A DNA stretch of 61,382 bases, counting the filler. It is 5 parts of 5 records of this genome, joined end to end, with 100 filler letters (N's around TTAATTAATTAA, not from the genome) between each part and the next. Parts side by side here need not be neighbours in the genome. Positions count along the whole stretch, not along the records: positions 28,149 to 45,675 come from DRR723986_9105; 4 more parts are not named here. The stretch is one strand, 5' to 3'. The notes beneath the pieces were generated by a model, which had not been told where the DNA came from, ran no database searches, and worked only from the letters and a program-made list of their open reading frames with translations. Shown here piece after piece: positions 27,086 to 45,886 of this stretch (the stretch's first letter is position 1; each line of letters starts with the position of its first letter). The position numbers and the translations under genes are program-made.

Positions 27086-27089
27086 TGTA

Positions 27090-27887: not shown

Positions 27888-27986
27888 GGCTTCGCCTTCC
27901 TCAGTTGCCGGATTATTCAGGAAATGGCTGCCGAGTATAACTGACGAGACAGAGGTAGTGAGTGATTTTGCGAGGCTATAAACGAA

Positions 27987-28011
27987 GAAACCCGGCCTTA
28001 GGCCGGGTTTC
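27987..28011 (-). terminator. Terminator downstream of tRNA-Gly
   Basis: GAAACCCGGCC-TTA-GGCCGGGTTTC hairpin followed by TTCGTTT on the minus strand. Confidence 0.75.
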
Positions 28012-28018
28012 CGAATTC

Positions 28019-28048
28019 TGGAGCGGGAAACGAGATTCGAACTCGCGA
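28019..28048 (-). tRNA. tRNA-Gly (GCC-type), 3' part only
   Basis: Minus strand TCGCGAGTTCGAATCTCGTTTCCCGCTCCA, truncated by the contig end. Confidence 0.85.
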
Positions 28049-28148
28049 NNNNNNNNNNNNNNNNNNNNNNNNNNNNNNNNNNNNNNNNNNNNTTAATTAA
28101 TTAANNNNNNNNNNNNNNNNNNNNNNNNNNNNNNNNNNNNNNNNNNNN
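28049..28148. other. Artificial contig spacer
   Basis: 44 N + TTAATTAATTAA + 44 N. Confidence 0.98.
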
Positions 28149-28280
28149 GCTTGAAGCTAAGAAGGGGAAGTTTACAATACCACTCAGATTGCCATATCAA
28201 TAAATATTCTTATGTGAAGCAGGTTAAGACAAATGGTGCATTTGTGTCTGTCGTTTTGATTTCAATTGCAGGAGTAATGA

Positions 28281-28763
28281 ATGAATTTTAGAGATTGGTT
28301 GAACAGATGGAATGTCGGACCTCTTAAGGTCAATCTTCAATTTCTTCAAATGGAATGGGATCCTACCGATGCGGACAAAGATGCCGCTTGGGAAATGTAC
28401 ATTGAATTAATTACCCGGATTACAACACAATATCTCGATCCGGAACACGGAGATGAAAAAACAGCACTGGACAGTGTCCACAAGATATTCGACTTGACTC
28501 GTGAGATAATAAAAAGAAAAGGACGGCAAACAATTTCTTTTGCGAAGGTTGCAGTTCTCATTCTAAATCAAAAAATACGTCCATTCACAGCAAAATGGCA
28601 CAAGCTAAGCCTAGAGGGAGGTTTTGATGATGCCGACAGGTGCATTCAATTTCGTGAGGAATTATCGGTACTGCAAGGGGTCCTGCGTGAATACACGCGC
28701 ATGCTCGCGGACCTTGCAGGAGTCGAAGATTTGACGTCTCTGGAAAATGATTCGAAAGATTGA
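28281..28763 (+). CDS. Conserved-looking hypothetical protein (160 aa)
   Basis: AGGAG RBS. Motifs AAWEMYIELITR, GDEKTALDS, LNQKIRPFTAKWH. Function unknown. Confidence 0.75.
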   Translation: MNFRDWLNRWNVGPLKVNLQFLQMEWDPTDADKDAAWEMYIELITRITTQYLDPEHGDEKTALDSVHKIFDLTREIIKRKGRQTISFAKVAVLILNQKIRPFTAKWHKLSLEGGFDDADRCIQFREELSVLQGVLREYTRMLADLAGVEDLTSLENDSKD

Positions 28764-28803
28764 TCTGCATTCTGTCTTAACTGAATCATCGTCTGAACTC
28801 GAT

Positions 28804-30504
28804 TTAAATAGACACTGGCAACAAGTCTGCGACTGTGCGACCGGCATGGGTAAATTTCAATGCCAATTTCTCATTTGAATTTTGCTGGTAGTATTCTATG
28901 AATGCCTGATATGTATTTACGGGCAACAAGCTATATGAGTAGCCTCGAAGTTTTGATATCACTTTTCCAGATAGCAAGTATTCAATGTCACTGGCAGGTG
29001 GATTTCCATTCTGCAATCGTATTCTGATTTCAAGAAGCTTTTCTTGCAACTTGAATTCTTCAACAGAATGCAGTTCGTCAGAGTATGCTTCAAATTTCGT
29101 CTGGTAAGTATGCAGGTTTTTGCTTGAATATTCGTGACTCAGGCAAGAAAGAATTAGGTGGTAGTATGTATGGCTTGTGCGTCGAATTTCTTCGCTTTTC
29201 ACAAAATACTCGAGTGCTTCGACTAAATGTTGTTCCCTCTGCTTATGATCACCAGAAAAGTAGCACAACTGTGCCTTGGCAAATGCAAGGAATCCTTTGC
29301 CCTTCCAGTTAATTTTGGCAGAATCTCCAGAATCAATAGATTCTTCCTCATAGCTCAGAAGTAATTTTTCCGATTCTTCAAAAAGTCTCTGTGACTGTTC
29401 GAACTCTCCAATCTGCACGTAAGAAAGAGCACAGTTATATGTGATGAAATCAAGTTTGATCCTTTGACCGGAAGCTTGGGCCAAGTTGATTCCTTTTTCA
29501 AAAATCTTGATCGAGTCATCAAACCTTCTAATTTGCTGCAAAATTAACCCGTTAATGTCAAACGCCCGGACGTAGTATTTTGTCCACGCAGAATCATGTT
29601 CAGTAAGCTTACGCAACTTGTCACGTGTTTCAGCCACCTCGCTAAGCAATTTAATCCTGGTGTCGAAACTTTTTGCAGTTTTCCGTTCAACATCAGCACT
29701 CTCAAGATATAATAAAGTTCGAACTTGATCATTGTTGCATTGTTCAACATGCCTTCTGAAGATATCGATTGCTAATGTAGCCTTTCTGGTCTCACCCTTT
29801 CGATTGTGATAGGTTAGCAATTTGTACAAGTGCTCAAAATATGAAACATCAAGATAGTTGTTGTTGGTCACCCAGTCTTGCAGTGATTCATAAACAAATC
29901 CCGCAAGTGGGGCATATTTAACAATATCGATAGCTTCCGACTTAGGTTCAACACCTCTGGCGAGTTCTAAAGCATTACTGAAACGTCTAATGATCGAAAT
30001 CTGAAATCGGCCATCTTTGTGCAGAGTATTGATTTTCGCGAGAATTTGATCTATTTGTTTTTCGTAAGCATGTTTGACGTCCAAATCTATTCGGTGTTTG
30101 GCGACGAATTCTGGCTCAATCTCCAACATCTGATTCTTGGTAAGTCCAAGATTAATCGGGATGACTGGATATTTACCTCTTACTTCTTCAGTCGCATACA
30201 TTGCTCTAAGTTCAGTTTTTAGCCAATTAACCCTGCTCTTCAAAAGTTTGTCATAGTAGAATGGTGTCAATAGAATAATGGCACTTCTTGCTTTTGTGAT
30301 ACCGCGATTTATCTCATCACGCAAATAGTCACCTACTCCAATGTGGCTCTCATCATGCCAAACCAGATAATCGGCATTCCTGAGTGCACCAACAATTTTT
30401 CTGGCAAAGTCAACATCTTCACTTGAGTAGGATAAAAAATAGTCGTTTTCAAAACTGAATGACTGGAAAATCGAGTCAGTATTTGGCGTAGAGTCAGTGG
30501 GCAT
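28804..30504 (-). CDS. TIR-domain protein with C-terminal TPR-like repeats
   Basis: YFLSYSSED...VWHDE...GDYLRDEINRGI...IILLTP...WLKTEL (catalytic Glu present), then helical TPR-like repeats (NGLILQQIRRFDDSIKIFEKG; NCALSYVQIGEFEQSQRLFEES). No Walker A seen. Start uncertain. Confidence 0.82.
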   Translation of the reverse strand: MPTDSTPNTDSIFQSFSFENDYFLSYSSEDVDFARKIVGALRNADYLVWHDESHIGVGDYLRDEINRGITKARSAIILLTPFYYDKLLKSRVNWLKTELRAMYATEEVRGKYPVIPINLGLTKNQMLEIEPEFVAKHRIDLDVKHAYEKQIDQILAKINTLHKDGRFQISIIRRFSNALELARGVEPKSEAIDIVKYAPLAGFVYESLQDWVTNNNYLDVSYFEHLYKLLTYHNRKGETRKATLAIDIFRRHVEQCNNDQVRTLLYLESADVERKTAKSFDTRIKLLSEVAETRDKLRKLTEHDSAWTKYYVRAFDINGLILQQIRRFDDSIKIFEKGINLAQASGQRIKLDFITYNCALSYVQIGEFEQSQRLFEESEKLLLSYEEESIDSGDSAKINWKGKGFLAFAKAQLCYFSGDHKQREQHLVEALEYFVKSEEIRRTSHTYYHLILSCLSHEYSSKNLHTYQTKFEAYSDELHSVEEFKLQEKLLEIRIRLQNGNPPASDIEYLLSGKVISKLRGYSYSLLPVNTYQAFIEYYQQNSNEKLALKFTHAGRTVADLLPVSI

Positions 30505-30739
30505 GTTGATAAATGTTGGATTTGGGAATCGATGAAAATGAGTTATCGGTACAACGCTAGGCAAATAACAGACCGACTCAATTATATGGTAAATTGAAGA
30601 TACTCAATATCCATAGCCTGGCAAATACCCAAAATAAATGTATTGTTGATATGTAGATTTCCCCACGCTATCTCAATTCGCCCGTTCCGTCAGCATCTGC
30701 ATTATACCGGCAAAGATTCGTTCTTGTTACTCGCTTGAA

Positions 30740-31174
30740 TCAAGTCCCAAGACATAAGATTTGTTCTTCGAATTGACGCCGCTCCTTTCGCTCCAGTTCA
30801 CGTTCGATCCGCCCGACCAGACAGGCGAGCCAGTTCGGCGGTTCTGACGGCATTTCCGTCAAATTTTGAGGCATCGGGAGATGTTTCCAATCAGGCAATT
30901 CTAATTTTGCCGCTCCGCCGCCAAGACCGGCGCATGTATGCACTTCGCGGAATGGTTCAAACGCGGACGAATTCATATAGGCTAACGCAGCTCGTGCAAT
31001 TGCGGGACAGTTAAACCTGTAGGTGAACAAGTTGTGATCGATTAGTGCTCCTTTGGGTGATTCAAAGATTGCAAAGCGATTGCCGGTACTCATAGGCAAA
31101 AGCATGTCACCGCAGCCAGTCTCCGGCAGGCACCACTAATTGCGATATCCTTGTGCAGATGGAACCAATCGCCA
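30740..31174 (-). pseudogene. Decayed copy of the 3' end of 34782-36266 (MTase C-terminal half/TRD)
   Basis: WRLVPSAQGYRN*WCLPE...LLPMSTGNRFAIFESPKGALIDHNLFT...GLGGGAAKLE. In-frame TAG at 31136-31138; N-terminal two-thirds missing. Confidence 0.85.
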
Positions 31175-31568
31175 GGATCTATCTCTACCAGATCTCACTG
31201 AAAAGGACCGGCCAATTTCACGATCATGACCGCGCAATCCCAGGAAAATGACCGACTGCATCAGTTAGTGATGCCATCGAGGAGCGTCGTGGTGTTCGGA
31301 CATTATCTTCTCACGATTACGGTTCTTCTTTTGCGTATTCTGCCAAGGTAACCGTGAAGTAAGGCCGTCGAATAGGAAGATTCCATTGCGCGGCATACAC
31401 GTGATGCTACGGCTTCATTAATTTAATCACTCCATGACTACCTGATCGTTGCGCCAATAATTGATTCGAAAGTCAGCATTCACAAGATGCTCAAATGATA
31501 TGCCGCAATTGGTCGAAGATAGCTTTAGCCGCTTTTCGTGATGTTTTTGCGTTTGCTCCAATTCATAT

Positions 31569-32227
31569 TTATTCCTTATCGGCCGGAATCATTCGTAGCA
31601 TTCCAGGCGCTGTAAACCCCACCTCATAAGCCACCCTAAACTCGCACTCACTCAACGGCCCCGGCTGAATATCAAAGATATCTCCGCAAATAATTAGGCC
31701 ACGCATTCCAAACAGTGCCAAATTGATAACGCTCATCTTAGCCATGGTACAATCAATGTCTATCCCGTACAATAAGACATTTGGCACAAGACGCCCTGCA
31801 GCTAGCAATAAACGTCCAGAACCACAGCATGGATCACAAATGGTCGGAGACTCCTCGCCTTCTTGAATGTCCAATGTTTGGGCAACAACCATGTCAGCCA
31901 GATCCTGGCGTGTCATTGTCTGGCCAAGGTGTTTTTGGCCGAAATTGGCGTTTGCAAAGTAGTTGTCCAAGATTTCGGCCGTTACAGTTTAAGTAAATGA
32001 TGCAAAAACGCAACTTTTGATGCGCAAGCAATGTTTGGAAATCTTCGTCAATGCCAAGTCATTTTCTTAGGTCCTCCATTGATTCACTTGAGATATATGT
32101 GTGAATTACACAAATTATAACAGTTCAGGTACGTGTCAATCACTTCTTTCAACTTGACTTCATCACTCATGAAGTTACTGAAAATGGGATGTAAAAGTCT
32201 GGCTGATTGGGTTAGAAAGTTAAACAT
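31569..32227 (-). pseudogene. Frameshifted copy of the N-6 DNA methylase N-terminal half (36250-36942)
   Basis: Begins MFNFLTQSARLLHPIF (vs MFKFQTKTAHQLHSIF), loses frame, resumes as 31569-31970 with ICDPCCGSGRLL...LYGIDID..MAKMS. Confidence 0.85.
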
Positions 32228-32532
32228 CTTGATTTAGTTGTGTCAAACCAGTTCCTTCAGCTTTTTCGCCGGGTTCTCCATGAGATGGATAATCCGTAAA
32301 GTCTTCCAGCATTTGAATTAAGTAAAAGAGATTTCCGGTAGCATTAATGTCGGTGACTCGATGTAGTTGCTCAAAGATGTCGTCTGCATTCACTAACTTC
32401 AATTCGAATGGAAATATTTCATTGAACCAGCGGTTGTCGACTACCAAACCGTAGCGTGAAATGTAGCGGACGAGTGGACTGCAAAGGTTCGATCACGTGA
32501 TACGACTCCGGCAGCAGTGCCCGCATATAACG
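32220..32532 (-). pseudogene. Decayed copy of the 3' part of 36953-37570
   Basis: RWFNEIFPFEL...DDIFEQLHRVT...GNLFYLIQMLEDFTDYP. Nucleotide similarity to about 36960-37245. Confidence 0.85.
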
Positions 32533-32739
32533 AATTACTTCGTGACTGCCTCATTTCGCACAAATGACCGTTGTATCTCACGAAATTTTGTGTCGTCAGT
32601 CACTACATGTTGGCAATTTGGGGACTAACGCTCGTGAAATAAACCGTAATCCGAAGCAACAACTTTTCTAATAGTTACGGAAACTCTAACAAGGAAGTAA
32701 CACTGTGATTATTTAAAGGTTTGTATCCGCTTTGCGTTC

Positions 32740-33300
32740 TTACAGCTCTTCTCTACCCTCAAACCATGCTACCAAAGGATCGATTCTGTGGTCATCGATT
32801 AAGCTTTCGTGCCAAGAATAATCGTTCGAAGAAGCAAGGGTAAACCAGCCGATGAACTTCGAGATGTGTACCCATGATGGCGGAGCAGAATCTTGCCCTA
32901 AAGATCGAGTATGGTAGTTGGTCTTTCCATCCTGTACCGTGACAATAGCAATTCCATGTTCGGTTGCGAATTTGATGGCCCCGCTTTGAAAGCCAGATGT
33001 CGAGAAGATCATGCCCTTGTGGGCTCCTAATTCCTGTAATTTCTGATTCAAAAGCATGAGCATGTCTCGCTTAATTGGATCTTTATGACGTTTGCATTCT
33101 ACCAGAACTACGATTTCGGCACCACCAAAGATTTCAAACCGGGCCACTGCATCTATCTCATACTCTCCGCTTCGCCCTTGAAGATGTTCACGATGAGTTA
33201 CAGTGAAACTCTTGAGGTCATTACGCGACTGTGCGAGCCAAGCTTTGACTTGCTGCTCGAATTTTTTTGGAGTGATGTCGACGGGTTCAAATTCTCTCAT
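32740..33300 (-). CDS. Stand-alone Mrr-like (PD-(D/E)xK) restriction endonuclease
   Basis: PKKFEQQV...EIDAV...LVECKRH...KGMIFSTSGFQSGA..FA..HGI. Start may extend to 33342. Confidence 0.85.
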   Translation of the reverse strand: MREFEPVDITPKKFEQQVKAWLAQSRNDLKSFTVTHREHLQGRSGEYEIDAVARFEIFGGAEIVVLVECKRHKDPIKRDMLMLLNQKLQELGAHKGMIFSTSGFQSGAIKFATEHGIAIVTVQDGKTNYHTRSLGQDSAPPSWVHISKFIGWFTLASSNDYSWHESLIDDHRIDPLVAWFEGREEL

Positions 33301-33717
33301 AAGGTAACTACAAGTTTTGGAAGAATGATCCGCGTATAGCAACGGTAATGATTCAGCCTAGTACAGAGATAACGACAGCGCAAGCCGTTAAAAAAGTACG
33401 GATTTTTTCGGCTTGCTTCCAAGGTAGTCGAGCATAGTACTACAACTCGGCACCTTCCGGAACGAGTCGGACGGTGCCTATACCGGCGACTATGTCTTCT
33501 GTAGAGTTCTTGTCTTGTTTTCTAACGGTCAGGACTACCTCGTCTGTTACTTCATTCTGCCAGTTTTAAAGAGAATTAACAGATTGACTCTGTGGTACTA
33601 GGTCTGTGCTGGCTCGACTCCAAAAATCATTGACTAGTTGCGGCGGATGCAACAAGGGCATAAAACGAACAGTAAAGACATGAATCCACTGAATTGCATG
33701 TTAATATGTCGTTTGAC

Positions 33718-34668
33718 CTACTTGACCAGAATCAGTCGCCGAGTAGCTTTAAAATGTTCTCCTTTGACTTGGATATCGTAGCTACCACTACCATTGTGAA
33801 ATTTACTAGCGCTGAAGGTGAAGACGTGTTCTGTAGCTTCCAGTAACCCTTCATATAATAGCGCAACCCTACTCCCCAATACATTGAATACCTCAACTCT
33901 CGCATGTTGGGCACGGCCCAAGGTCAGATTGATACTTGCATCCGTAGCACATGGGTTTGGATAGACCAACGACAGACTATAGCCTTGAGGACTCACGAGG
34001 TCAACCTCACTGGAGCCCAGAATCTCCAACGAATAAACCAAATCATCAATCAAGACCCCGTCTATGCTCGATCCCGTCGCGAAATGGATTTCAACTTCTT
34101 TGAACGCTGTTTCGCTAACAAAGCCAAGAAAGGAGAAAACACCTTGCCCCTGGCCACTCGAAAATGACACGCTTGGAAGTGCAGCGCCTATATCTGTGCC
34201 AAAACCTGTCGAGTTGAAGTCCGCTTCAACATCCACAAACGTTGCACCAAAAGCTTTGACGGGTTTATTGAAACTTATCTTGAGGATCCCTTCTATAGAG
34301 CCTGAACTTGCTGGTCCCAGCATATTTGTGCCACTAGGTGGGACAGGTATCTGGCCAGGCGCAGGGTTACCGACAAACACTCCTTCTCCAGTTACTAAGG
34401 AAATGAAAGGAGAACCTGGGCTGCTCGAAAACTCATCGCCTGCTATAGGAGCCTCGATCGATCCTTCTATGCTGTCGAAGTCAATAATTATAGGACTCGT
34501 CCCAATTTTATCAATCCAGGCGTCAAAGTTATTTTCAAATGTAGCTACCTGAGCATAGCTGCTTGCGCTGGCAGCGAATACCACGCTCAGTGCCATTATG
34601 AAACTTATCCCATTCATAGCATCGAATCCAAGAAAAAGGGTGGAATTTGTGTGCATTGGGTTGAGCAC
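33718..34668 (-). CDS. Secreted protein with T9SS type A C-terminal sorting domain
   Basis: Signal peptide ending SYA-Q. C-terminal YPNP...VEVFNVLGSRV...GSY...TRRLILVK. Real start probably near 34620. Confidence 0.82.
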   Translation of the reverse strand: MLNPMHTNSTLFLGFDAMNGISFIMALSVVFAASASSYAQVATFENNFDAWIDKIGTSPIIIDFDSIEGSIEAPIAGDEFSSSPGSPFISLVTGEGVFVGNPAPGQIPVPPSGTNMLGPASSGSIEGILKISFNKPVKAFGATFVDVEADFNSTGFGTDIGAALPSVSFSSGQGQGVFSFLGFVSETAFKEVEIHFATGSSIDGVLIDDLVYSLEILGSSEVDLVSPQGYSLSLVYPNPCATDASINLTLGRAQHARVEVFNVLGSRVALLYEGLLEATEHVFTFSASKFHNGSGSYDIQVKGEHFKATRRLILVK

Positions 34669-34781
34669 ATTACATACATACTACCTTAAAATCCAACAAA
34701 ATGAACTAAATATTTTTGTTATTAATCGTGAAAATCCGAAAAACTTCAATAGAAATAAGTCAATGAAAAGTCCTATTCAAT

Positions 34782-36266
34782 CTAATTTACTCGACCGTTC
34801 GACCGCTCAGCCACCATCTTCACGATGCCTTCGGCAATCCACTCCAAATACCTGTCCGGATCAAGCCCCAGTAACCGCAAAACCAAGGCATCAATCTCAC
34901 CCCGTTCCGGTTGCTCTAGTTCACGTTCAATCGTCTCAACCGGCCTGGCAAACCAGTCAGGCGGTACTGGCGGCACTTTCGATAAATCTCTTGGCACCGG
35001 TACATGCTTCCAATCCGACATTTCCAATTTGGCCGCTCCACCACCAAGACCGACACGTGCATGAACTTCACGGAACAGCGCAAACACGGACGAATTCATA
35101 TAGGCCAACGCAGCTTTCGCTTTTGCGGAACTATCAAACGTGCAGGTGAAGAGATTGTGATCGATGAGTGCGCCCTTGGGTGATTCAAAAACAGCAAAGC
35201 GATTGCCGGTACTCATTGGCAAAAGTACGTCACCGCTCGCAGCCTCAGGCAAGCACCACCAGCGGCGACGTCCTCTTACTGACGGAACCAATGGCCAAGC
35301 CGTGCCTGTTTTGTTGACCTTCGACTCGCCCCACTTGATGTATTTCAATGCGCCGAAACACTTTCGTTTTCGCAGAGTACCTTGGTATTCCTGACACACA
35401 AACGCTCGATACTCCAGAGCATGTGCATTGGGTGCTGCAACTGTTAACAAGTCGCGTGGGCTACGCACCAGTGATTTAAGGAATTCTGCTTCTATGTAAA
35501 AGCGATTTTTGCATGGAGTCTCAATCAGCAATTTGTCTTTTTTACGTGCACCCGGATTATCACGTACTAGTCGCACGTAGAAAAATGCATTTATTCCAGA
35601 CTTAACTCCGGGCTTAATCCTAGCAATTTTTTGTAACTCCGTTAAACGATCTCCGCAGGAATGCAGTATCTCAAAGTATACTTCAGGAGCACGCAGATAG
35701 CGATTCCAAATACTAGGTGCTCTTGCTACTCTTGTGGTGCATCGCAGTTCTTTTTGCGGCACAAGACGTTCGTAGTTATTGATGTTATTATCATTGCATT
35801 GCTCAGCTCCTTGTTCCTTGGAATTCAGCAAAGGTTTAAGCAGAGTAACAAATCGGCAAGGGCTGTTAACTACGGAAGGTCTTTTCGTATTCTCAAAAAT
35901 GAGGATAACTGCTCTGACATCAATTTCTGCACTAAACCATTTCTCGACCCACGAAGTTTTAACAGAGTGAATTGTATAATTCTCAATCAGGAACAACTGG
36001 AGTTGCATCGCGTAGCCCGCGCACAGCCACGAATATGGACCAATAACTCCAATACGAGCAGCCTTTGCCAGCAGCTTGGCCAGGTATACCTGAATGTAGA
36101 CCGAACTGTCCGCATTGCCTGGAATTGAAAATTGGGACACTTTGGTTTTGTGGCATTGTTTAATAGCCTTAAAACCGGAGCGAATAAAGGGCAGGTTGCT
36201 CACAAGCACTTGCATTCGTGGAATCACAAGTACGTCTTGTCTGACTATGTTAACTGCTTTTGGCAC
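34782..36266 (-). CDS. C-terminal portion of an Eco57I/type IIG-like N6-adenine MTase (variant motif IV onward plus TRD), lacking motif I
   Basis: VSNLPFIR (NPPY-like), RIGVI..YSWL..GYA..LQ.FL, EKWF, W.RYLRAP..YF.IL, GVKSG.NAFFY, ALKYIKWGE, GLGGGAAKLE. Confidence 0.75.
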   Translation of the reverse strand: MPKAVNIVRQDVLVIPRMQVLVSNLPFIRSGFKAIKQCHKTKVSQFSIPGNADSSVYIQVYLAKLLAKAARIGVIGPYSWLCAGYAMQLQLFLIENYTIHSVKTSWVEKWFSAEIDVRAVILIFENTKRPSVVNSPCRFVTLLKPLLNSKEQGAEQCNDNNINNYERLVPQKELRCTTRVARAPSIWNRYLRAPEVYFEILHSCGDRLTELQKIARIKPGVKSGINAFFYVRLVRDNPGARKKDKLLIETPCKNRFYIEAEFLKSLVRSPRDLLTVAAPNAHALEYRAFVCQEYQGTLRKRKCFGALKYIKWGESKVNKTGTAWPLVPSVRGRRRWWCLPEAASGDVLLPMSTGNRFAVFESPKGALIDHNLFTCTFDSSAKAKAALAYMNSSVFALFREVHARVGLGGGAAKLEMSDWKHVPVPRDLSKVPPVPPDWFARPVETIERELEQPERGEIDALVLRLLGLDPDRYLEWIAEGIVKMVAERSNGRVN

Positions 36267-36942
36267 AGTTGTTTACCTTTTTGTAGTCCGGCGTGTTGAT
36301 TATCCGCAGTTCGCCCAACTTGATACGACCAATTTCGTATGCACGTTCGAACTGATGTGAATCCAGCCCACCAGGTTCAAAGTCAAACACATCTGCACAG
36401 ACCAGCAGGCCACGTAGTTGGAAGACAGTTAAATTGACTGCACTCATTTTAGCCATACATTGATCAACGTCGACGCCATATAATGTTGCATTTGCTGCAT
36501 ATCGTCCTGCGGCTAAGAGAAAGCGACCATTACCACAACAAGGATCGCATATGTTAAGCGCTAAATTTCGCTGGTCAGGTTTAATCATCTCGCGAACAAT
36601 ATAGTCTGCTAACTCTTGCGGCGTCAGCGTTTGGCCTTTGGATTTGTCTCCGAATCCCGCGTGCTCAAAATAGTCACCCAAAACGTCGGCCTGTTCGCGG
36701 AGCATACCTTGTTTACAGATATCTATTGCAGAGTTCAATGCTGGTGATCTTTTCAAATCTGCAGTAACTTGACCAGATGTTTTCAGCAGTTCGCCATTAT
36801 TTGCTAAGCCATTATCACAACAGCTTTGTATCATCAACTCCAGAAATGCATCGAATACGCTTTTGAGGCCTACATTTTGCGAGACCATATTCATAAAAAT
36901 GGAGTGCAATTGATGAGCTGTTTTGGTTTGAAACTTAAACAT
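36250..36942 (-). CDS. Short N-6 DNA methylase-like protein (motif X and motif I, no NPPY motif IV)
   Basis: DVLGDYFE...KGQTLTP, ICDPCCGNGRFL, YGVDVD..MAKMS. Overlaps the downstream ORF by 17 bp. Start MFKF (36942). Confidence 0.8.
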   Translation of the reverse strand: MFKFQTKTAHQLHSIFMNMVSQNVGLKSVFDAFLELMIQSCCDNGLANNGELLKTSGQVTADLKRSPALNSAIDICKQGMLREQADVLGDYFEHAGFGDKSKGQTLTPQELADYIVREMIKPDQRNLALNICDPCCGNGRFLLAAGRYAANATLYGVDVDQCMAKMSAVNLTVFQLRGLLVCADVFDFEPGGLDSHQFERAYEIGRIKLGELRIINTPDYKKVNNCAKSS

Positions 36943-36952
36943 CTTAATTAAA

Positions 36953-37570
36953 CTATTCCTGGCCAGTGCTTTGAGAAGGCTCACTGGAGTCCTTACGAAA
37001 GGGGTAATCCGCAAAGTCTTCCAGCAACTGAATTAGATACAAGAGGTTTCCAGCGGCATAAATAGCAGTTACACGATGCTGCGGCTCAAGAATGTCATCT
37101 GCGTAGACTTTCATCAATTCGAATGAAATTATTTCATTGAACCAGCGGCTATCATCGACCAAGCCGTAGCGTGAGATGTAGCGGAAGAATGGCTTCCAGA
37201 GTTCGATCATACGCCAGGACTCCGGCGGCAGTGCCCGTGCATACCGCTCTTGATCCGTGAATGCAATGAAGTTAAACAAGGTCTGCGCGTAGGCTATCGG
37301 AACTGCAATCGGAGTCAATTCCTGACTGAACTTTGCACCTACCAGAGCACGTAATTCAGGATGCAGCAGTTTTACACCACGGATTGCGGGTGTGCTCTGC
37401 ATACGAGCGAGTACTGATTGAATCGACATATGGTCAAGACCCATTTCACCGAATTTATTACACGATTCGCAATGATATTTCTGTTTGCAGGATTCTGTCG
37501 TTCCGTTCAGTAGAATGTCGGTTGAGCCGCAGTGCGGACAACTCCAGTTCGATTGAGCACGCGTACTCAT
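36953..37570 (-). CDS. Hypothetical protein: IS1/InsA-like zinc ribbon plus unknown helical domain
   Basis: CPHCGSTDILLNG....KQKYHCESC. C-terminal AIYAAGNLLYLIQLLEDFA. Confidence 0.75.
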   Translation of the reverse strand: MSTRAQSNWSCPHCGSTDILLNGTTESCKQKYHCESCNKFGEMGLDHMSIQSVLARMQSTPAIRGVKLLHPELRALVGAKFSQELTPIAVPIAYAQTLFNFIAFTDQERYARALPPESWRMIELWKPFFRYISRYGLVDDSRWFNEIISFELMKVYADDILEPQHRVTAIYAAGNLLYLIQLLEDFADYPFRKDSSEPSQSTGQE

Positions 37571-37573
37571 TGT

Positions 37574-37981
37574 TTAAGCACCCATCCCATCTATGTCGTC
37601 CCCAACACGATGCAATGCATTGGCAATGTCGATCAGAATGCGATTCATCTCGAAGAGATTGCCGCAAGCATAGAGAATGCGGGCTTTTTGTTCCCTGTTC
37701 AGATTCTCACTCTCAATGACCGGCGCTATTTGCAGAATCAGACCATCGATAAAGCTGGCCTGGCGTGGATCGTATTCGCCGACGGCGGCATCGAAGAATT
37801 GCCCAAAGCAGTCCAGGTAAATGTCTGCGTCGCTATTCCGCGATCTATTAACATGCTTAACAATGTAGGCATGTATGGCACGCGCTGTAGCATAGCTTTG
37901 TTCGTTGATAAGTCGCATATGTCCGGTTTCGTCAAGGATCACCCTGCGCAACTCGGGATCGTCAATCTCGAATTTCGACAT
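37574..37981 (-). CDS. Hypothetical helical protein, paralog of the C-terminal domain of 36953-37570
   Basis: ILYACGNLFEMNRILIDIA. Ends 3 bp before the next gene starts. Confidence 0.72.
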   Translation of the reverse strand: MSKFEIDDPELRRVILDETGHMRLINEQSYATARAIHAYIVKHVNRSRNSDADIYLDCFGQFFDAAVGEYDPRQASFIDGLILQIAPVIESENLNREQKARILYACGNLFEMNRILIDIANALHRVGDDIDGMGA

Positions 37982-38200
37982 AATTTCTTCAGTTTTAGAA
38001 AATGAATCAGCTACGCGTTGTGTGCTCTTCCAGATGAAGTATAAACGCGTTCAGGCAAAAACTCCCCTGCCAAAGCAGCTCAAAAGCATGCTCCAGATTG
38101 AGATGATTGATTTTGGTTTAATTATTCCAGAATTGCCGTTGGGCTGATAGTCTACCATTTCCCAAAATGGAGACTGACAGACATTCTGACGTGGGCAACT

Positions 38201-39859
38201 CTAATCTTCAACCGGCGCTTTCACACTGGAATCTTTCGTGTTAACAGTATTCGGCAGTGCCTCCTTTGAAGCAGTGCGATACTGTTTGACAAAAACACCT
38301 TCTTGCTCGATCTGTTCGAGTTCATGAAGCACACGTTCCCAGATGTGTTCGTAGGGGACAATTTCTTCGATTTGCATACTTCCAAAAGTATCAGGACAAT
38401 GATGCGTACTAAGTTGCTGAAAAGTGGCTTCGGTACGCTCCCTGATTTGCCTCATGTCGTATTGACATTGGACGACGGCAATGAAAAATTTGAAAAGAGT
38501 TTCAGTGCGCCAAAAGCGGCCATATCCATCATTGTGGAGGTTTTTGTATATGTAGTTATCCAGCGCCTTGATTCTGGATTCAAACAAGTCGAATTGGCGC
38601 TCTCGTAGTCTGTACAAGACCTGAAATATCAGGATGGAAATATTCAGACCGGCTTTATCTTTACGAACAACATCAACTTCTTGCAATAAGCGATTAATGT
38701 GGAACGAAGCTCCATGAACAGTGACGTTAAGCGCCATCACATTTTCAGCCGAACTGAACAACCTCAAATAACCTTCCAACACAGTCCAAACTTCAACGCG
38801 TAGCGGATCTTTCTTGAAGCCTTTTTGTGCTAGCCCCCATCGGAAGAGTTCAAATGCGTTTGTCCACTCTTTAAGATGTAAATTGAGAATTATGTGCAAT
38901 GTTTGATGCATGAACCAACTCAGCGTGCCAATTTGCTGATGTTTTATGCCCAAATCAGCTAAGTACTGCGCACGCGAATAATCTCGCATAATTAAACAGC
39001 ATCTCAAGGCCGAGTAGCAAATCTGGGCAACTTCGCTATTATACCGGAGATGTGTGTTCTCATCCAAGAAATTCAAATAGTCTTCATATATCTGAAATGC
39101 TTTATCGAAATCCCCACTGTGCCGATAAACCAAGCTGCCAACAACACTAAGGTCATGCCATAAACTTCTGGACTGATATTTGTTAACATCATCCTGGAGT
39201 TGTACTACTTCGCCAACCATAGCTTTAATGTTCGCGGGATCAATTGCAAGCTGTTCTGTTAACTCCGCTCTGATACGCGTTTTCAGATTCGATGCTTTGA
39301 CTTCTGCATTTAGGATTTCCAACAAATCTTCGACCCTGTTAGCATAGGCCAGGCAATCCTGCTTTGGTCCGTGAATCGACGCATGATACTTCAGAATTTC
39401 AATGCTACGAAGCTCCTCACGCGTAAGGTGGTACCTGGCCGCTTTCTTTTGCACGCGTAAGGCAATTGTTCGCATGGCAGAATGGCTTTGAAACCACATT
39501 AACAGTTCCGCTACCACAAGCTCCTTCTTCGTTGAATACATATTGACCAGATATTCGGAGTATGAACGATGGCAGATGTTCAAAAACAACAGCGCATTCA
39601 TCAAACGATTAAATAACTTGTACTTACTTGATCGTAGTGAGTTTAGTCGTTTTGAGTTATCGGCTTGCCCAGAATGAAGAAGGTCGGCGGCATCCTGATC
39701 GCTTATATCCTGATCTTTGACAATTAACTTGAGCAGCTTCCCCTGGGGGCTTTTTTGTTCCATTGCATGAGAATAAGTCGGATTTCGGCGGCTCATTAGC
39801 CTCTTTATCAGATCATGCATTTCTTTTATTGCTTGCATATTTTCGCCTGTTTTGGGCAT
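38201..39859 (-). CDS. Large all-alpha (TPR-like) hypothetical protein
   Basis: 552-aa ORF with helical repeats and motifs KDKAGLNISILI, EIVPYEHIW. Start may be 39838. Confidence 0.75.
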   Translation of the reverse strand: MPKTGENMQAIKEMHDLIKRLMSRRNPTYSHAMEQKSPQGKLLKLIVKDQDISDQDAADLLHSGQADNSKRLNSLRSSKYKLFNRLMNALLFLNICHRSYSEYLVNMYSTKKELVVAELLMWFQSHSAMRTIALRVQKKAARYHLTREELRSIEILKYHASIHGPKQDCLAYANRVEDLLEILNAEVKASNLKTRIRAELTEQLAIDPANIKAMVGEVVQLQDDVNKYQSRSLWHDLSVVGSLVYRHSGDFDKAFQIYEDYLNFLDENTHLRYNSEVAQICYSALRCCLIMRDYSRAQYLADLGIKHQQIGTLSWFMHQTLHIILNLHLKEWTNAFELFRWGLAQKGFKKDPLRVEVWTVLEGYLRLFSSAENVMALNVTVHGASFHINRLLQEVDVVRKDKAGLNISILIFQVLYRLRERQFDLFESRIKALDNYIYKNLHNDGYGRFWRTETLFKFFIAVVQCQYDMRQIRERTEATFQQLSTHHCPDTFGSMQIEEIVPYEHIWERVLHELEQIEQEGVFVKQYRTASKEALPNTVNTKDSSVKAPVED

Positions 39860-40015
39860 AAATCGCCGTTATTTGAAGCGGTTGTGTAAATTGAGCGGTT
39901 TTTGCAGCAGTCATGGAAACCGGTAATTCGGGAGGCACCGAGAAATTGACCAGAGTATACTTGCCCAATAATAGAAACATTGCGACAAGTGTACCTTGCA
40001 TCGGAAATAGCTCTT

Positions 40016-40231
40016 ATGGTATTTGAAACCCTACTCTGCATACTATTGTACCTCGGTGCAATAATCAGCCCCGGCTCCTACAGCTACACGTTCATAGATG
40101 AGCAAACTGTAGCCAACCAAGCTGCTATCGACCAAATTCACAACGATCCAGTCCAGGAGCAAGCGATTGTCCAGCAATACACTCCCCAATTGGAATTCCT
40201 GGATCTGTATCCGGACGAAGCGGTAGACTAG
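40016..40231 (+). CDS. Small (71 aa) acidic protein with hydrophobic N-terminus
   Basis: MVFETLLCILLYLGAIISPG...NQAAIDQIHNDPVQEQAIVQQYTPQLEFL. Coding status is supported by a paralog at 40666. A hairpin follows at 40245-40260. Confidence 0.7.
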   Translation: MVFETLLCILLYLGAIISPGSYSYTFIDEQTVANQAAIDQIHNDPVQEQAIVQQYTPQLEFLDLYPDEAVD

Positions 40232-40665
40232 AGTCATCTTTGGTTCGCACCACGGTGCGATCGGTGTTCTGATGAACTAAGAAAGAAATGACTGCAACCG
40301 GTCCATGCTTGCCGATTTGGTGACTGAAGCTAATAAAGCTAGATATATCCGGCAAATGATATATGAGTTGTTGGTCCGTTTCGTAATGATGTAATTTCCG
40401 AGACTGTATGAGTCACTCTTGGACCGAACTATGTAAAAACGTCGATTTTCAGGCAAAATGCGTGCATTCTGGTTTTTTATCTTATCGTGGCTGCTTTGTT
40501 TGCATAAAAGTGATCAGTCATGATATCTGATTGAATCACGCTGCAGACGAACAATTTTTAGGAATGTGGCCACGGCAATCTACCGAGCGATTTCGGCTGG
40601 CAAACACATTGCTCTCGTCCAGGTTTTTTTAGCCATTACAAGATCCAATCTACAGATACCTGATA

Positions 40666-40876
40666 GTGGAAGATTTGTGCAGCACCCTCTTATGCCATTC
40701 CGTTGTAGATAGGCCCCGCTCATACAAATACCAGCAGATAGTGTTATTGTGGCGCAACCAACCAAACAGAGGTGGATTTGGTTCACAGCAATCCCAAGCG
40801 GGAACAGGTGATTATTGCCGAATTTTCCACTCAGTTAGAGTTTCTCCGTCTCTGCGAACCCGATGCAGAGAATTGA
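40666..40876 (+). pseudogene. Frameshifted paralog of 40016-40231
   Basis: Frame A EDLCSTLLCHSVVDRPRSYKY; shifted frame from about 40760 NQTEVDLVHSNPKREQVIIAEFSTQLEFLRL..., stop 40874-40876. Confidence 0.72.
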
Positions 40877-41160
40877 GTCTCTAATATTATGCGCTGTGGG
40901 AGAAATATATCCGAAAGCTGTCGTATTTTGTAATCTAGCCATTGGAACGCACAGCGGAGCGGGTGCAGAGTAGAGGGTTATATAGCAATCAAATACGACT
41001 GCAATACAAATTCCAGACCCTTGCTAGAAGTCAGGATACTTAGTCCTTGATGATATGAACGAAGTTCAGATAGCACAATCTATAACACGGATGTCCTGGA
41101 CGCTGCTGCAAAGGCACTTGACCAAAAAATATCTTCACACAAGTATCGAATTACAAAACT

Positions 41161-44100
41161 ATGGATATCGACTTTAATCATATCGTTGAACGAAATGGAA
41201 GCAAGAATAATTCTTTCGAAGAGATGTGCTGTCAACTAGCAAATCTGCACTATGGTGAAAGTAGTCGATATACAAGAATTGACGGTAAAGGTGGAGACGG
41301 TGGTGTTGAAGCCATCATTGAAATTGACTCGGGTAAGAAAGTAGGAATTCAAGCAAAATATGTATTTGACGTCACGAACTTAGTTAAACAGCTCAAGAAA
41401 TCAATAGATGCAGCTCTCAATGTGTACACTAAATTTGAAAAGTACATAGTTTGCATTCCGTTTGACCTCTCTGGGCCTACTGGTAGGAAAGGAAAGAGTG
41501 CGATACAGAAGGTACAGGATCTGCTAGACAGCTACAAAGTTCAAGTACAAGAGAAGCGCATAAGTTTTGAAATATGGTCAAAATCCGTGTTGACTCAGCG
41601 CATACTGAGACTCGATGTAAACGGAGGGATGCGTCAATTCTTTTTTAACGGCAATGTGTTGTCAGAAGAGTGGTTTTCAAATAAACTGGCTTCTGCAGAA
41701 CAAACTGCTGGACCTAGATACTCCCGTGAACTTAACGTTGAGACCGAGCTTTATTGGTGGATGCAGGCATTTGGAAAAACAGATGAATGGAAGAGCAGTA
41801 TTGAATCGAAAATTTCGAGCATCCGTGATCTTTGCGGTCAAATAAGCGAGGGCTGCCAGGTCGTCAAACCGAATCCATTTCAGCCGCTGTGGCCTGAACA
41901 GCATAAGGCCACAGCCCTTGTTGTTGTGGACAGATTGGAAACGTGGACTTCACAGATTCAGTTAGCACATGTAGAATGGTCTGCATCAGGACTTGACGAA
42001 TTGAGAAACATTGCGAAACTAGTTTCAACAACTGAAAACGGTCTGCTGGAAGAACTGAAGCGTGAATTTGGTGATGAATTTCACGATACTGTGCGGTTCA
42101 GAGAGTTTCATTCAGAATTTAACGCGGCATTTCCGGCGGCAAATTTGGATTCAGTTCGCGAGCTTAAAACTCTTATCGACAGCATTGACCTTTGGATTGA
42201 GTCGCCACAGTTCTATTTGTCAACACAAAAATGTTTTGTGTTAACTGGAGATGCCGGAGTCGGAAAAACTCACGGAATCTGTGATACAGTAAAAGCTCGA
42301 CTATCAAGCGGATCACTATCTTGCCTAGTTTTTGGTCATCAGTTTGGCGCACAAGGAGACCCCTGGCTTCAAATCGCGGATTTGCTAGGTTTACATAGTG
42401 ACAATGGAACAGACGGAATTTTAGATCAACTGGATGCTGCGGGGAGAGCTGCTGGAAAGATATTAATTGTTTTTGTTGATGCTCTGAATGAAACCAAGCC
42501 CAATTCATTCTGGAGGAATAACCTGGCTTCTTTCATTCATGCCTCTAGCACACGTGATTTTGTAAAAGTATGTGTTTCCTGTAGATCGTCGTACTTAAGC
42601 TATTGCCTTCCACGCAATCATGATTACGAAATCGTTTGCCATCAGGGATTCAAAGGCGTGGAACAAGGTGCAGTAAACAAGCACTTCGAGCATTTCGGAT
42701 TACTTCCTCCAATCTCACCAATTTTGCACCCCGAATTTTCAAACCCTCTTTTCTTGCGTCTTGTTTGCAAATCACTTGAACTCAAAGGCTTGGATCAGAT
42801 GCCAGTTGGGTGGAAAAGTATGTTTGCAGTTATTAAAACTTACTTAGAAGAACTTGAGATTCAATTCAGCACTGATTTCGGAGTATCAGAACGACATAAA
42901 CTTGTATCGAAGTGCTTAAGTGCTCTGGCAAAAACTCTAATTATTTCAGAAAGCAAACAACTAACCCTTTCAAGTTCAGTGAGGTGTCTTGAAGAGATTT
43001 CAACCGGAATTGACCCTCTTCGCGTAATTGACTGGCTATTGAGTTCTAATTTGTTAATCGACGATGTCTTGCCAAATCCGGAAAGCTTAACCGAGGACTC
43101 GCTCATCAATTTTGCGTTTGAGAGGCTTGGAGATTTCCTAATTGCTTTTAGTTTATCAGGTGGGTTGTCACATGAGAATGTCCTCGCCTCATGTGAAGTC
43201 GGAGGAGCAGTCCATGAGTTTATACATCAAAGAGAAAACTATGAAAATTATCCTGGAGTAATCCAATCACTATCTATTCTAGTGCCTGAAGTGGTGGAGG
43301 GATGCGAAGCAGTTGACTTACTTGAAGATAGTTCCCTCAAACACATTCTGCATCAACAAATCGTTGAATCAATACCATTCAGAGATCCGGGGGCATTTAG
43401 CGAGTCGACCGAAAAGATTATTTGGGCCGCTATCAGAACCAATGAACTATGTGAACTAGCATTCAAGAACTTACTTGCCTTGTGCTGGTTTCCTTCGAGA
43501 CTAGACTCCTTATGGATCGACTGGTTTTTAAATCGCCTCTCAATGGTTGAACGTGACCGAGTTTGGTGTTTTATATTGTATAAGAGTTACTCTGAGAATG
43601 CATCGAACCTTAAGACATTAATTGAGAGAGCGGCAGGTGACAATGTTACAGTAATCGACAAGGATATGGCTTTTAGGTGGGCTGTGGGCTTGCTATGGTT
43701 TACGGCGTCACCCGACTTAAGAATCAGGCATGGGTCGGCAAGAGGGGCGACAAATCTGATGTCGCATCACCCTTCAATTGTCAAAGACATACTTCGAATA
43801 TTTTTGCACACTCGTGATCACTCCGTTTGTGAGATGGCATTGCTAGGTGCTTATGGTGCTCTACTAACTGGCGGTGATCATCAGGCTTTAAAGGATTCTG
43901 CATCTGTCATTTGTGAAATGATTGATTCGGATTCGGTAACCAAGCTTCAACACGCGCAAATTCGCGACTTATGCACCAGCATTCTCTACTATGCAAAAGA
44001 TCAAAAAGCCCTGAATGAGAATTGTAATATTGACAGGTTAATGCAACCAATAGAGGTTCATGAAGAGTTTGAGATTGCAACAGAAGAAGAGATTGAAGAA

Positions 44101-45375
44101 TGGGAGAGCTTACCCGGGCTTGTAGCCAGTTGCCTTCACATGGACTTCGCCAAATACACGTTAAATATGTTAACTGGTTGGTCAAATAGTAACTTGAGAG
44201 GGTACTTTGGACATTGGATTTTGAATCGAGTGATTACTGAATTTGGGTACGCTGATCCGGGAATAATAGAATACGACAAACATGTTATGTGGAAATACGG
44301 AGCGGGTAGAGGTAAAGAAGTTTGGGCAGAGAGAATTGGCAAAAAGTACCAATGGATTAGTTTAAATCATCTAGCATCTTGGCTGCATGACTCTGTAGAG
44401 CGCGTGGATGATAATTTATATTGGAATGAGTTTACTATCCCACAAATACTGACTCGACTTCGAAAATTCGATCCTACAATGCCAACTTCAATTGCACTGA
44501 AGGAAAGAGAAAAAAGTGTCTGGTGGATTCCTGACCATAAAATACCAATGGTTCGGACACGCAAAGCCTCTGAGAGATGGGTCGAGGGGGTTGACAATGT
44601 TCTGACACTTGGGCACTTGACAAGCATTGTCACACATGGCGATAGCAAATGGAGAATTCTTACAACGTTCCCAGAATGGAGAGAAGAAGTAAACATAGAT
44701 GATGAAGGTACATCAACGCTTGAAAATTGGGCACATGTCAAGGGCTATGTAGTACCTCTATCTATGGTCGATCAGATATTCGGGGCCTTGGAAGGTCGAA
44801 ATTTCTTTAATAATTGGATGCCTCAGGGAATTTCATATCATGAAATATTCATGGGAGAATATCCTTGGGGCACTAATCTTCACCCAGAAGACGAATCAGA
44901 AGAGTATGATACAATTATTTCAAATTGCATCCCCACATGGAATGATGTTTCAGGAGCATGGGAATATGACAAAACTTTGCCAGATAGCTACTCTATACTT
45001 GCTCCAGGTTCGAGTATGATGGAAGGTGTTAAGCTGCAATGGAATCGGAGTGGAGGGTTCAATGATTCACAGAGTGTTACTATTTTTCAAGATCCATCAC
45101 TCTTGGAGGGTGGTCCCAGTACACTTTTAGTTAGTAGTAAGTTTCTAAATGATTATCTGGCAAAAAATCAACTCTCTATTATTTGGACCCTGTTAGGAGA
45201 GAAAATGGTTATTCCTTCAGACAGGACAAAAGAACATTCAATAGTTTATTACAGCCAGGTTGGGGCATTAACCGCTAATGAGAACTTGAGAGTTGGAAAG
45301 GTTTATTTCTTTAGAAATTCACAAGAGAACGTTGGACTTGCCGAAAAGTACAAGAATGGTGACAAGGACATTTGA
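41161..45375 (+). CDS. AVAST-like anti-phage STAND NTPase with N-terminal Mrr-like nuclease domain
   Basis: N-terminal FEEMC...GDGGVE...GIQAKY nuclease motif, Walker A GDAGVGKT, Walker B IVFVDALNE, NPLFL, FAFERLGDFL, long sensor region with ERIGKKYQWI. Confidence 0.8.
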   Translation: MDIDFNHIVERNGSKNNSFEEMCCQLANLHYGESSRYTRIDGKGGDGGVEAIIEIDSGKKVGIQAKYVFDVTNLVKQLKKSIDAALNVYTKFEKYIVCIPFDLSGPTGRKGKSAIQKVQDLLDSYKVQVQEKRISFEIWSKSVLTQRILRLDVNGGMRQFFFNGNVLSEEWFSNKLASAEQTAGPRYSRELNVETELYWWMQAFGKTDEWKSSIESKISSIRDLCGQISEGCQVVKPNPFQPLWPEQHKATALVVVDRLETWTSQIQLAHVEWSASGLDELRNIAKLVSTTENGLLEELKREFGDEFHDTVRFREFHSEFNAAFPAANLDSVRELKTLIDSIDLWIESPQFYLSTQKCFVLTGDAGVGKTHGICDTVKARLSSGSLSCLVFGHQFGAQGDPWLQIADLLGLHSDNGTDGILDQLDAAGRAAGKILIVFVDALNETKPNSFWRNNLASFIHASSTRDFVKVCVSCRSSYLSYCLPRNHDYEIVCHQGFKGVEQGAVNKHFEHFGLLPPISPILHPEFSNPLFLRLVCKSLELKGLDQMPVGWKSMFAVIKTYLEELEIQFSTDFGVSERHKLVSKCLSALAKTLIISESKQLTLSSSVRCLEEISTGIDPLRVIDWLLSSNLLIDDVLPNPESLTEDSLINFAFERLGDFLIAFSLSGGLSHENVLASCEVGGAVHEFIHQRENYENYPGVIQSLSILVPEVVEGCEAVDLLEDSSLKHILHQQIVESIPFRDPGAFSESTEKIIWAAIRTNELCELAFKNLLALCWFPSRLDSLWIDWFLNRLSMVERDRVWCFILYKSYSENASNLKTLIERAAGDNVTVIDKDMAFRWAVGLLWFTASPDLRIRHGSARGATNLMSHHPSIVKDILRIFLHTRDHSVCEMALLGAYGALLTGGDHQALKDSASVICEMIDSDSVTKLQHAQIRDLCTSILYYAKDQKALNENCNIDRLMQPIEVHEEFEIATEEEIEEWESLPGLVASCLHMDFAKYTLNMLTGWSNSNLRGYFGHWILNRVITEFGYADPGIIEYDKHVMWKYGAGRGKEVWAERIGKKYQWISLNHLASWLHDSVERVDDNLYWNEFTIPQILTRLRKFDPTMPTSIALKEREKSVWWIPDHKIPMVRTRKASERWVEGVDNVLTLGHLTSIVTHGDSKWRILTTFPEWREEVNIDDEGTSTLENWAHVKGYVVPLSMVDQIFGALEGRNFFNNWMPQGISYHEIFMGEYPWGTNLHPEDESEEYDTIISNCIPTWNDVSGAWEYDKTLPDSYSILAPGSSMMEGVKLQWNRSGGFNDSQSVTIFQDPSLLEGGPSTLLVSSKFLNDYLAKNQLSIIWTLLGEKMVIPSDRTKEHSIVYYSQVGALTANENLRVGKVYFFRNSQENVGLAEKYKNGDKDI

Positions 45376-45550
45376 TATTAAGTAGTGTCAATTGCACATA
45401 TGTTGAAAGGTTCCATTGAACTTGTCTGCTAGGTTCTTCAAATTTTGCGGCTAGTAATTGCTTATGATGTATATCACCACCAAAACATATTTTTGCATTG
45501 GGAGGGATTCTTTGAACCATGATCTACATCTGTAGCGAGAAAGCGATTTC

Positions 45551-45804: not shown

Positions 45805-45886
45805 CTTTGGCGAAAGGTCTGGAAAGGACCGGCTGATTTTGATGTCTTGGAGAAACGTCCTCCGAACGCCTGGCCTGCGTGTTTCC

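Follow-up and report, generated by a model that had tools for sequence, protein, structure and literature searches.

Within the window, as we call the whole 61,382-nucleotide (nt) stretch of DNA analysed here, four minus-strand genes (orfA to orfD, positions 34782-37981) form a cassette that we propose, with moderate confidence, to be a modification-only unit encoding a heteromeric, probably active N6-adenine DNA methyltransferase together with two new accessory proteins. The methyltransferase itself appears to be divided between two genes: orfC would supply the part that binds S-adenosylmethionine (SAM), and orfD the catalytic part and the DNA-recognition region. A first-pass annotation, made from the letters alone, had flagged the locus as a candidate new system comprising a paralogous helical pair and a split methyltransferase. 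Both elements of that description held, and the alternative it had offered, a catalytically altered complex, is now disfavoured.

The open reading frame (ORF) listing of the window places orfA (135 residues) at 37574-37981, orfB (205 residues) at 36953-37570, orfC (230 residues from an ATG at 36942) at 36250-36942 and orfD (494 residues, GTG start) at 34782-36266, all co-oriented on the minus strand. A 3-nt spacer (37571-37573) parts orfA from orfB and a 10-nt spacer (36943-36952) parts orfB from orfC, while orfC and orfD overlap by 17 nt, recovering the gaps of 3, 10 and -17 given in the first-pass annotation. The ORF listed for orfC spans 36250-37014 and begins at TTG; the ATG at 36942 is the start that homologues support, one of them (P0018) being likewise 230 residues long with the same start. 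The orfD frame lies at +1 relative to orfC and is open only from 36272, two codons 5' of its GTG. The overlap of this GTG with the orfC stop region (36250-36266, minus strand) is the split point of the methyltransferase, where the orfC stop at 36250-36252 and the +1 frame change together separate motif III from motif IV.

In translation, orfC has a helical N-terminal region followed by a SAM-binding half with motifs X (GQTLTP), I (DPCCGNGRFLL), II (GVDVD) and III (VCADVFD), and terminates in the loop before motif IV. Its residues 85-173 align to positions 3-99 of the 311 in Pfam N6_Mtase (PF02384; E 4e-8; 33.3 bits, cut-off 20.4), and residues 85-193 match fused relatives with an hhalign probability of 98.3%. 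The orfD chain, whose N-terminus is MPKAVNIVRQDVLVIPRMQVLVSNLPF, begins 23 residues before motif IV, which reads SNLPF at residues 23-27; its residues 15-418 align to positions 454-852 of the 935 in the PADLOC model REase_MTase_IIG (PDLC03606; E 5e-22). No Pfam match was found for orfD itself at E 0.1; its homologues carry PF07669 (Eco57I) and PF22837. In alignments, residues ~190-490 of orfD fall on the C-terminal part of fused relatives; they are probably a target recognition domain, the sole named recognition-domain match being TaqI_C in the relative P0009, weak (E 0.0019) and below cut-off. Motifs, Pfam and PADLOC placements thus agree with the original description of orfC as the SAM-binding half only and of orfD as running from NLPF onward.

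On single-chain relatives the orfC match comes first and the orfD match follows, with no overlap and no motif lost. The two matches fall at residues 9-108 and 130-644 of fused protein P0008, at 41-161 and 177-760 of P0017, and at 316-440 and 533-1007 of the protein at locus L002, and orfD shares 40% identity with residues 528-1004 of the 1170-residue fused protein at locus L001. The best solved relative for both profiles is M.BseCI (PDB 7qw5, chain A), in which orfC matches residues 13-82 and orfD residues 127-242, with NLPF falling on NPPY. In class I methyltransferases motif III lies at the end of strand 3 and motif IV at the end of strand 4. Because M.BseCI is covered consecutively, the cut is placed within the Rossmann sheet, in the loop that leads from motif III to motif IV. 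This consecutive coverage of both the fused proteins and M.BseCI supports the proposal, made already at first pass, that orfC and orfD are complementary halves of one gamma-class N6-adenine methyltransferase.

The same division recurs in the nearest relatives. A protein search with orfD returned 17 matches, of which the four nearest are 491-498 residues long at 47-82% identity (P0001, 82%; P0002-P0004, 47-48%), and in each of these the chain starts a short way ahead of IPRxxxxxSNLPF. Seven others, at 24-32% identity, are fused proteins that include the N6_Mtase N-half; among the remaining six, three cover just 61-65% of orfD and three are without PF02384. The corresponding search with orfC gave five matches, four of which (39-74% identity, 219-231 residues) terminate in the same loop. 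Both relatives of orfD in reference genomes (L001 and L002; 1170 and 1171 residues; 39-40% identity) are fused, and fused relatives were seen only at ≤40% identity. Close homologues with orfC and orfD joined as one ORF, which would have pointed to a simple frameshift, did not appear, the four nearest to orfD, and four of the five matched by orfC, being split. Five further proteins (P0005, P0007, P0010, P0006 and P0012; 476-718 residues) have PF22837, with or without PF07669, and no N6_Mtase N-half, and P0006 begins ~13 residues before its GNFPF motif; these lineages may, judging from their domain content, be split at or near the same place.

At the DNA level, a 5546-nt contig present in 4/4 runs from two other studies is collinear with window positions 34906-37981 at ~87% identity, with the frame offset kept (170 differences over 1334 nt and 219 over 1611 nt). 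Its sole indels are a compensating +1/-1 pair in the 10-nt orfB-orfC spacer, and the junction is spanned by a block so diverged that it does not align yet is exactly as long, 131 nt, in both, leaving no net indel. The first-pass annotation had singled out the overlap at 36250-36266 as the place to look for a sequencing-level frameshift, and on this relative's contig no frame-changing indel was found there. For the pair that is 74-82% identical to orfC and orfD, the C-terminus of P0018 and the N-terminus of P0001 allow exactly one compatible nucleotide string at a 17-nt overlap, where 3.5e-4 would be expected by chance, and none at the other tested overlaps of at least 4 nt. In the 40-47% clade the orfC tail is ~10 residues shorter and the orfD head ~9 residues longer, which fits only a 4-nt overlap or none. 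Codon position 3 holds 22 of the 38 listed orfD differences (p 0.0016), a bias that indicates purifying selection on orfD as far as these 38 of ~375 differences go. Together with a decayed copy of orfC, described below, that terminates at the same split point, these comparisons support the view that the split is a maintained arrangement and not a simple frameshift.

With orfD, metagenome contigs yielded two distant loci, one broken at another point and one fused with NPPY at motif IV; with orfA, they yielded no match. In the broken locus (L003 1-2190, 31% identity) the frame from motif IV stops after the catalytic core at 537, and a separate 541-residue ORF with the recognition region follows at 565-2190, a break elsewhere in the same family. 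Viral contigs gave no match to orfD or orfA, the phage collection gave none to orfD, and five plasmid records matched at 21-29% identity. Among 401 genomes sampled from the phylum of the nearest genome (G001), four weak matches (E ~1e-4) and no real relative were found.

The other two genes are related to each other. Profile comparison with hhalign aligns orfA 1-125 to orfB 62-192 (95.1%, E 3.3e-8), where plain BLASTP gives only E 0.004 over 32 residues, and both share a conserved C-terminal helix, Y-A-x-G-N-L...L-x-D-x-A. At the level of sequence profiles, the comparison confirms orfA and the helical domain of orfB as paralogues, as the first reading had it. That reading had also seen in orfB a zinc ribbon joined to a helical part, and two NCBIfam zinc models above cut-off bear it out: an N-terminal four-cysteine ribbon of the IS1/IS1595/IS256 transposase type at residues ~10-39 matches NF048018 (IS256_N_4Cys; 30.7 bits, cut-off 27) and NF050000 (IS1_IS1595_Zn; 30.6 bits, cut-off 28), the match to Pfam Zn_ribbon_InsA being below cut-off. 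Outside the ribbon orfB is not transposase-like. The AlphaFold2 (AF2) model of orfA is a helical bundle with a predicted local distance difference test score (pLDDT) of 75.6, and fold searches with it gave no significant match, the best being generic helical bundles (best Foldseek E 0.68; best VIA Z 6.0).

Homologues of both proteins are few. Among 1.84 billion representatives, orfA had six matches, four of them true homologues of 131-142 residues, to which P0031 is added; the homologues are 37-53% identical. Two long proteins, P0029 with a GAF domain and P0030 from a mollusc with a saposin domain, were discarded as unrelated, since they matched in several short stretches. Homologues of orfB are P0023 (91% identical) and P0024 (57%), with P0033 and P0034 as cluster members, and nothing in the Atlas exceeded 0.81. 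orfA and orfB were judged not to derive from the ~300 residues at the N-terminus of the fused enzymes, hhalign giving 0.03% and 0.6%.

All four genes occur together on at least three other contigs. Homologues of orfA, orfB, orfC and orfD are carried by contigs of 11306 and 8177 nt, and those of orfB and orfD by one of 8783 nt; the 5546-nt contig spans all four genes at the DNA level. Its downstream neighbour differs, since the contig diverges from the window ~124 nt before the orfD end. The first-pass annotation had looked to recurrence of the four-gene order elsewhere as a check, and these contigs support orfA-orfB-orfC-orfD as a set that, to judge from gene content, travels as a unit. The second, decayed copy that it had reported in the same island was located by tblastn, on the strand of the cassette and with the order B'-C'-D' retained: B' at 32247-32486 (62% identity to orfB 124-203), C' at 31587-31979 (50% to orfC 85-215) and D' at 30824-31177 (68% to orfD 323-440). 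The ORF covering most of C' (31569-31970) matches Pfam N6_Mtase at E 5e-7.

The cassette stands in a stretch of 43% guanine-cytosine (GC) content (28-46 kb) within a genome of 56% GC; by blocks, the window has ~70% GC at 1-9000, ~56% at 9000-28000, ~43% at 28000-46000 and ~56% at 46000-61382. G001 is 98% identical over window positions 18000-28048, where the match ends; it has no orfD match, and the 45-56 kb stretch, host-like in GC, is also absent from it, so the region is strain-specific, defence-island DNA. The last 30 nt before the break (28019-28048) recur exactly elsewhere in contig C1 of G001.

Several neighbours belong to defence-related families. A 586-residue protein with N-terminal TIR_2 and TPR domains (28804-30564, minus strand) matches the PADLOC PDC-S66 and ThsB-like models; a 200-residue Mrr_cat protein of the PD-(D/E)xK type (32740-33342, minus strand), PDC-S02-like in PADLOC, lies directly upstream of the truncated B' and overlaps the expected position of its missing part; and on the opposite strand Avs2, an antiviral STAND nucleoside triphosphatase (NTPase) of 1404 residues (41161-45375, plus strand; best PADLOC E 1.4e-256), is transcribed divergently from the cassette. 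Between the intact cassette and the decayed copy sits a 316-residue protein (33718-34668, minus strand) with a weak type IX secretion sorting domain, Por_Secre_tail (E 1e-4, below cut-off). A 552-residue helical protein encoded 5' of orfA (38201-39859, minus strand) has no match in Pfam, PADLOC, NCBIfam or PHROGs; in the Atlas it falls nearest (0.96-0.97) to clusters of hypothetical proteins ~500 residues long, commonest in Bacteroidota, and in one cluster near it TPR_2 is found on 13% of members. The Por_Secre_tail domain and these Bacteroidota-rich clusters hint at a Bacteroidota origin of the island. The 219-nt spacer 5' of orfA contains two 18-nt direct repeats (38002-38019 and 38034-38051) that are 32 nt apart, 72% alike and have ACGCGT at one end of each. 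This pair could be a candidate operator, and two copies this short may also be chance. A scan for sigma-70 promoters and terminators gave sites no more numerous than in shuffled sequences.

Taken as a whole, the proposal is that one horizontally moving operon encodes a gamma-class N6-adenine DNA methyltransferase in parts. In this arrangement motifs X, I, II and III, on the SAM-binding strands, would come from orfC along with a helical N-terminal region, and orfD, translated from its own GTG within the end of orfC, would give motifs IV (NLPF) to VIII and the DNA-recognition region. As neither half forms a Rossmann fold alone, the two would have to associate. The tandem paralogues orfA and orfB, members of a new helical family, would act with or on the methyltransferase, orfB contributing its transposase-type zinc ribbon; we infer an accessory role for them, most likely as a heteromer with a DNA-binding or regulatory function. 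With no nuclease encoded, the cassette would by itself only modify DNA, being either an orphan methyltransferase or the methylation arm of a system encoded elsewhere. Its origin may lie in the type IIG-like Eco57I family, through loss of the N-terminal part and fission, or in the recruitment of a free SAM-binding half.

A number of points weigh against this proposal. The role given to orfA and orfB is its weakest step: their helical domain belongs to no family in Pfam, PADLOC, NCBIfam or PHROGs and has no sequence-profile match in PDB, and the AF2 model of orfB is poor (pLDDT 47). The window junction was read from assembly sequence alone, and the junction DNA of the relatives was deduced from protein ends, not read directly. 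Except for the 5546-nt contig, homologues were assigned to one contig indirectly, by equal longest-contig size. The module is very rare, with about five lineages in 5.8 billion clustered proteins, and this limits the power of comparison. Motif IV of orfD has leucine where most DNA amino-methyltransferases have proline. Lastly, a plain orphan methyltransferase would be an odd thing to find in a defence island as a cassette with no effector.

The leading alternative, unlikely in our estimate, is a self-sufficient defence or counter-defence system not recognised before: the split methyltransferase would mark DNA and orfA and orfB would be sensor or effector, for example by controlling the assembly of the methyltransferase halves or by acting non-nucleolytically on unmethylated DNA. 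It is favoured by the low-GC, strain-specific island with its Avs2 (E 1e-256), TIR-TPR protein and Mrr-like nuclease; by the absence of the cassette from G001, which is 98% identical on the left flank; by the conservation of all four genes together, with orfB the most conserved (91% and 57%); by the second, decayed copy in the same island; and by the position of orfA and orfB outside all known families. Set against these, the four proteins have no recognisable effector domain (nuclease, NTPase, TIR or membrane protein), nothing among the PADLOC systems fits apart from generic methyltransferase models, and location in an island is weak evidence. A more specific form, to which we give a similarly small chance, is a nuclease-free four-component device in which the paralogous helical pair, with a DNA-binding zinc ribbon on one member, governs reconstitution of the methyltransferase from its halves, allowing switchable or targeted methylation in defence or counter-defence.

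Doubtful, and less probable than a defence system, is a complex that binds SAM and DNA without methylating and so serves as a sequence reader or SAM sensor. Its motif IV is NLPF and not (N/D/S)PP(Y/F), its methyltransferase fold is split in two, and phages have free-standing SAM-binding halves without a visible catalytic half (phrog_5696; gp27, considered below). On the other side, motifs I and II are intact in orfC, and the residues concerned are invariant in the split clade: N24, L25, P26 and F27, including the asparagine and the aromatic residue of motif IV, in all five aligned orfD sequences, and D133, P134, C135, C136, G137 and G139 in all five aligned orfC sequences. Position 2 of motif IV varies across the family, fused relatives carrying NFPY, NMPF or NPPY, and NLPF aligns to the NPPY of M.BseCI. 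The adenine dimethylase DIMT1 has NLPY as its SAM-contacting motif, and its AAAA mutant is without methylation in vitro (PMC8463865). With the motifs invariant, position 2 variable across the family and NLPY in use in DIMT1, activity is to be expected, and the split enzyme is probably an active N6-adenine DNA methyltransferase. On the same grounds the catalytically altered complex suggested at first pass loses favour.

Less probable again is a single polypeptide made through programmed +1 frameshifting, or through phase-variable slippage, at the A run of the overlap, as an on/off or dosage switch. By eye, the overlap contains GCC-AAA-AGC, at which a lysine tRNA could re-pair one base 3', and the read-through is stop-free; homopolymer frameshifts divide type IIG genes in Helicobacter pylori, HP1353-HP1354 being an example (PMC3936762). 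The longest homopolymer here, in contrast, is four A in the overlap and five A just upstream, where the tracts treated in PMC3936762 exceed 8 bp. The overlap deduced for P0018 and P0001 retains the GTG and the stop without an A run of three or more, the shifted ends and starts in the 40-47% clade would mean a different frame offset, and every called split homologue opens its orfD frame with a start codon. Separate initiation with translational coupling would be the better reading of this junction.

A recently frameshifted pseudogene of a single-chain methyltransferase, or an assembly error, is the least probable: two frames do overlap at a short A run, and the nearby decayed copy means that the family does decay in this genome, but relatives at 39-82% identity repeat the split, as do the decayed copy and an independent contig from two other studies, where no frame-changing indel was seen; orfD has a third-position bias and both halves have invariant motifs. 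Given the split relatives, the collinear contig, the unique overlap string and the codon bias, recent frameshift, pseudogene and assembly error are all very unlikely.

If the four genes do encode a heteromeric methyltransferase with accessory proteins, the consequences reach beyond this locus. A conserved natural split would show where the methyltransferase fold tolerates fission, which is useful for engineered split methyltransferases, and would warn annotators that such split pairs are not pseudogenes. orfA and orfB would define a new family tied to DNA methylation, and, should they regulate or target the enzyme, a new control of a bacterial epigenetic mark inside a defence island.

Compared with known systems, the cassette is set apart first by what it encodes. 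No nuclease or helicase domain was found in orfA-orfD by Pfam, PADLOC, NCBIfam or PHROGs, in agreement with the first-pass annotation, whose further claim, that the layout departs from known restriction-modification and defence systems, was upheld in part: for type I, type IIG and BREX, by domain content and curated scores. The likeness to the single-chain enzymes of the Eco57I/type IIG-like kind lies in the catalytic family and in the motif order X-I-II-III-IV followed by the recognition region. These enzymes are one chain, whereas the cassette breaks the chain between motifs III and IV and has NLPF as motif IV; in type IIG enzymes an endonuclease is fused or co-encoded, and the cassette has no nuclease family. 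The fused L001 and L002 proteins have an N-terminal part of ~300 residues, with a candidate D...ELK nuclease-like motif seen there by eye, that the cassette is without.

Other multi-gene systems resemble it only through generic methyltransferase matches. For type I restriction-modification, the hsdM score is 18.9 bits (cut-off 242.75) and no HsdS or HsdR was seen among the scanned operon and island proteins; for BREX, BREX_1_MTaseX (PglX) scores 14.2 bits (cut-off 500), with no PglZ or BrxC among the scanned island proteins; for MADS, antiphage_MADS2 (MAD2) scores 21.5 bits (cut-off 720), the other genes of the system not being seen among the scanned island proteins, and the PADLOC mad2 match (E 7e-12) is limited to the generic SAM-binding part. 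MADS and BREX are methylation-linked defences, and their methyltransferases give weak generic matches to orfC and orfD.

Phages offer a likeness for orfC. The family phrog_5696 (~250 residues) matches orfC 6-187 at E 6e-14, including the N-terminal helical part that is absent from the fused relatives. A 217-residue protein of Flavobacterium phage vB_FspS_laban6-1, gp27, annotated as N-6 DNA methylase, ends after motifs X, I, II and III; its gene lies within L009 3139-4136 (NC_048834.1) and overlaps that of gp26 by 4 nt. That neighbour is annotated as a single-stranded DNA-binding domain protein citing PF08401, and does not resemble the orfA/orfB pair. Free SAM-binding halves such as phrog_5696 may form a separate family of their own.

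Methyltransferases divided between two genes are known in other settings. In M.AquI and M.EcoHK31I a single methyltransferase fold is specified by a pair of adjacent or overlapping genes, and both products have to come together (PMC3404938); they resemble orfC and orfD in having two adjacent genes that each hold part of the conserved motifs. Both enzymes methylate cytosine at C5 and are interrupted within or after the variable region, the small subunit having motifs IX-X or IX; the cassette, in contrast, would encode a gamma-class N6-adenine enzyme cut inside the Rossmann sheet and has two extra conserved genes. In H. pylori, type IIG-family genes (HP1353-HP1354, JHP1272) exist as two ORFs that are phase-variable via homopolymers (PMC3936762); there the tracts are long and the split is strain-variable, whereas the cassette has no long tract and its split is kept at 39-82% identity. 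A conserved III/IV cut in an adenine enzyme with two extra genes is matched by neither the C5 nor the H. pylori precedents, and full-text searches gave no description of a bacterial N6-adenine methyltransferase naturally split between SAM-binding and catalytic halves.

In the ciliate complex MTA1c, p1 and p2 help bind DNA. This complex of MTA1, MTA9, p1 and p2 belongs to the eukaryotic MT-A70 family, is non-homologous and has an unsplit catalytic fold; as a four-subunit N6-adenine DNA methyltransferase (PMC9174199), it shares with the arrangement proposed for orfA-orfD an adenine methyltransferase built from several polypeptides.

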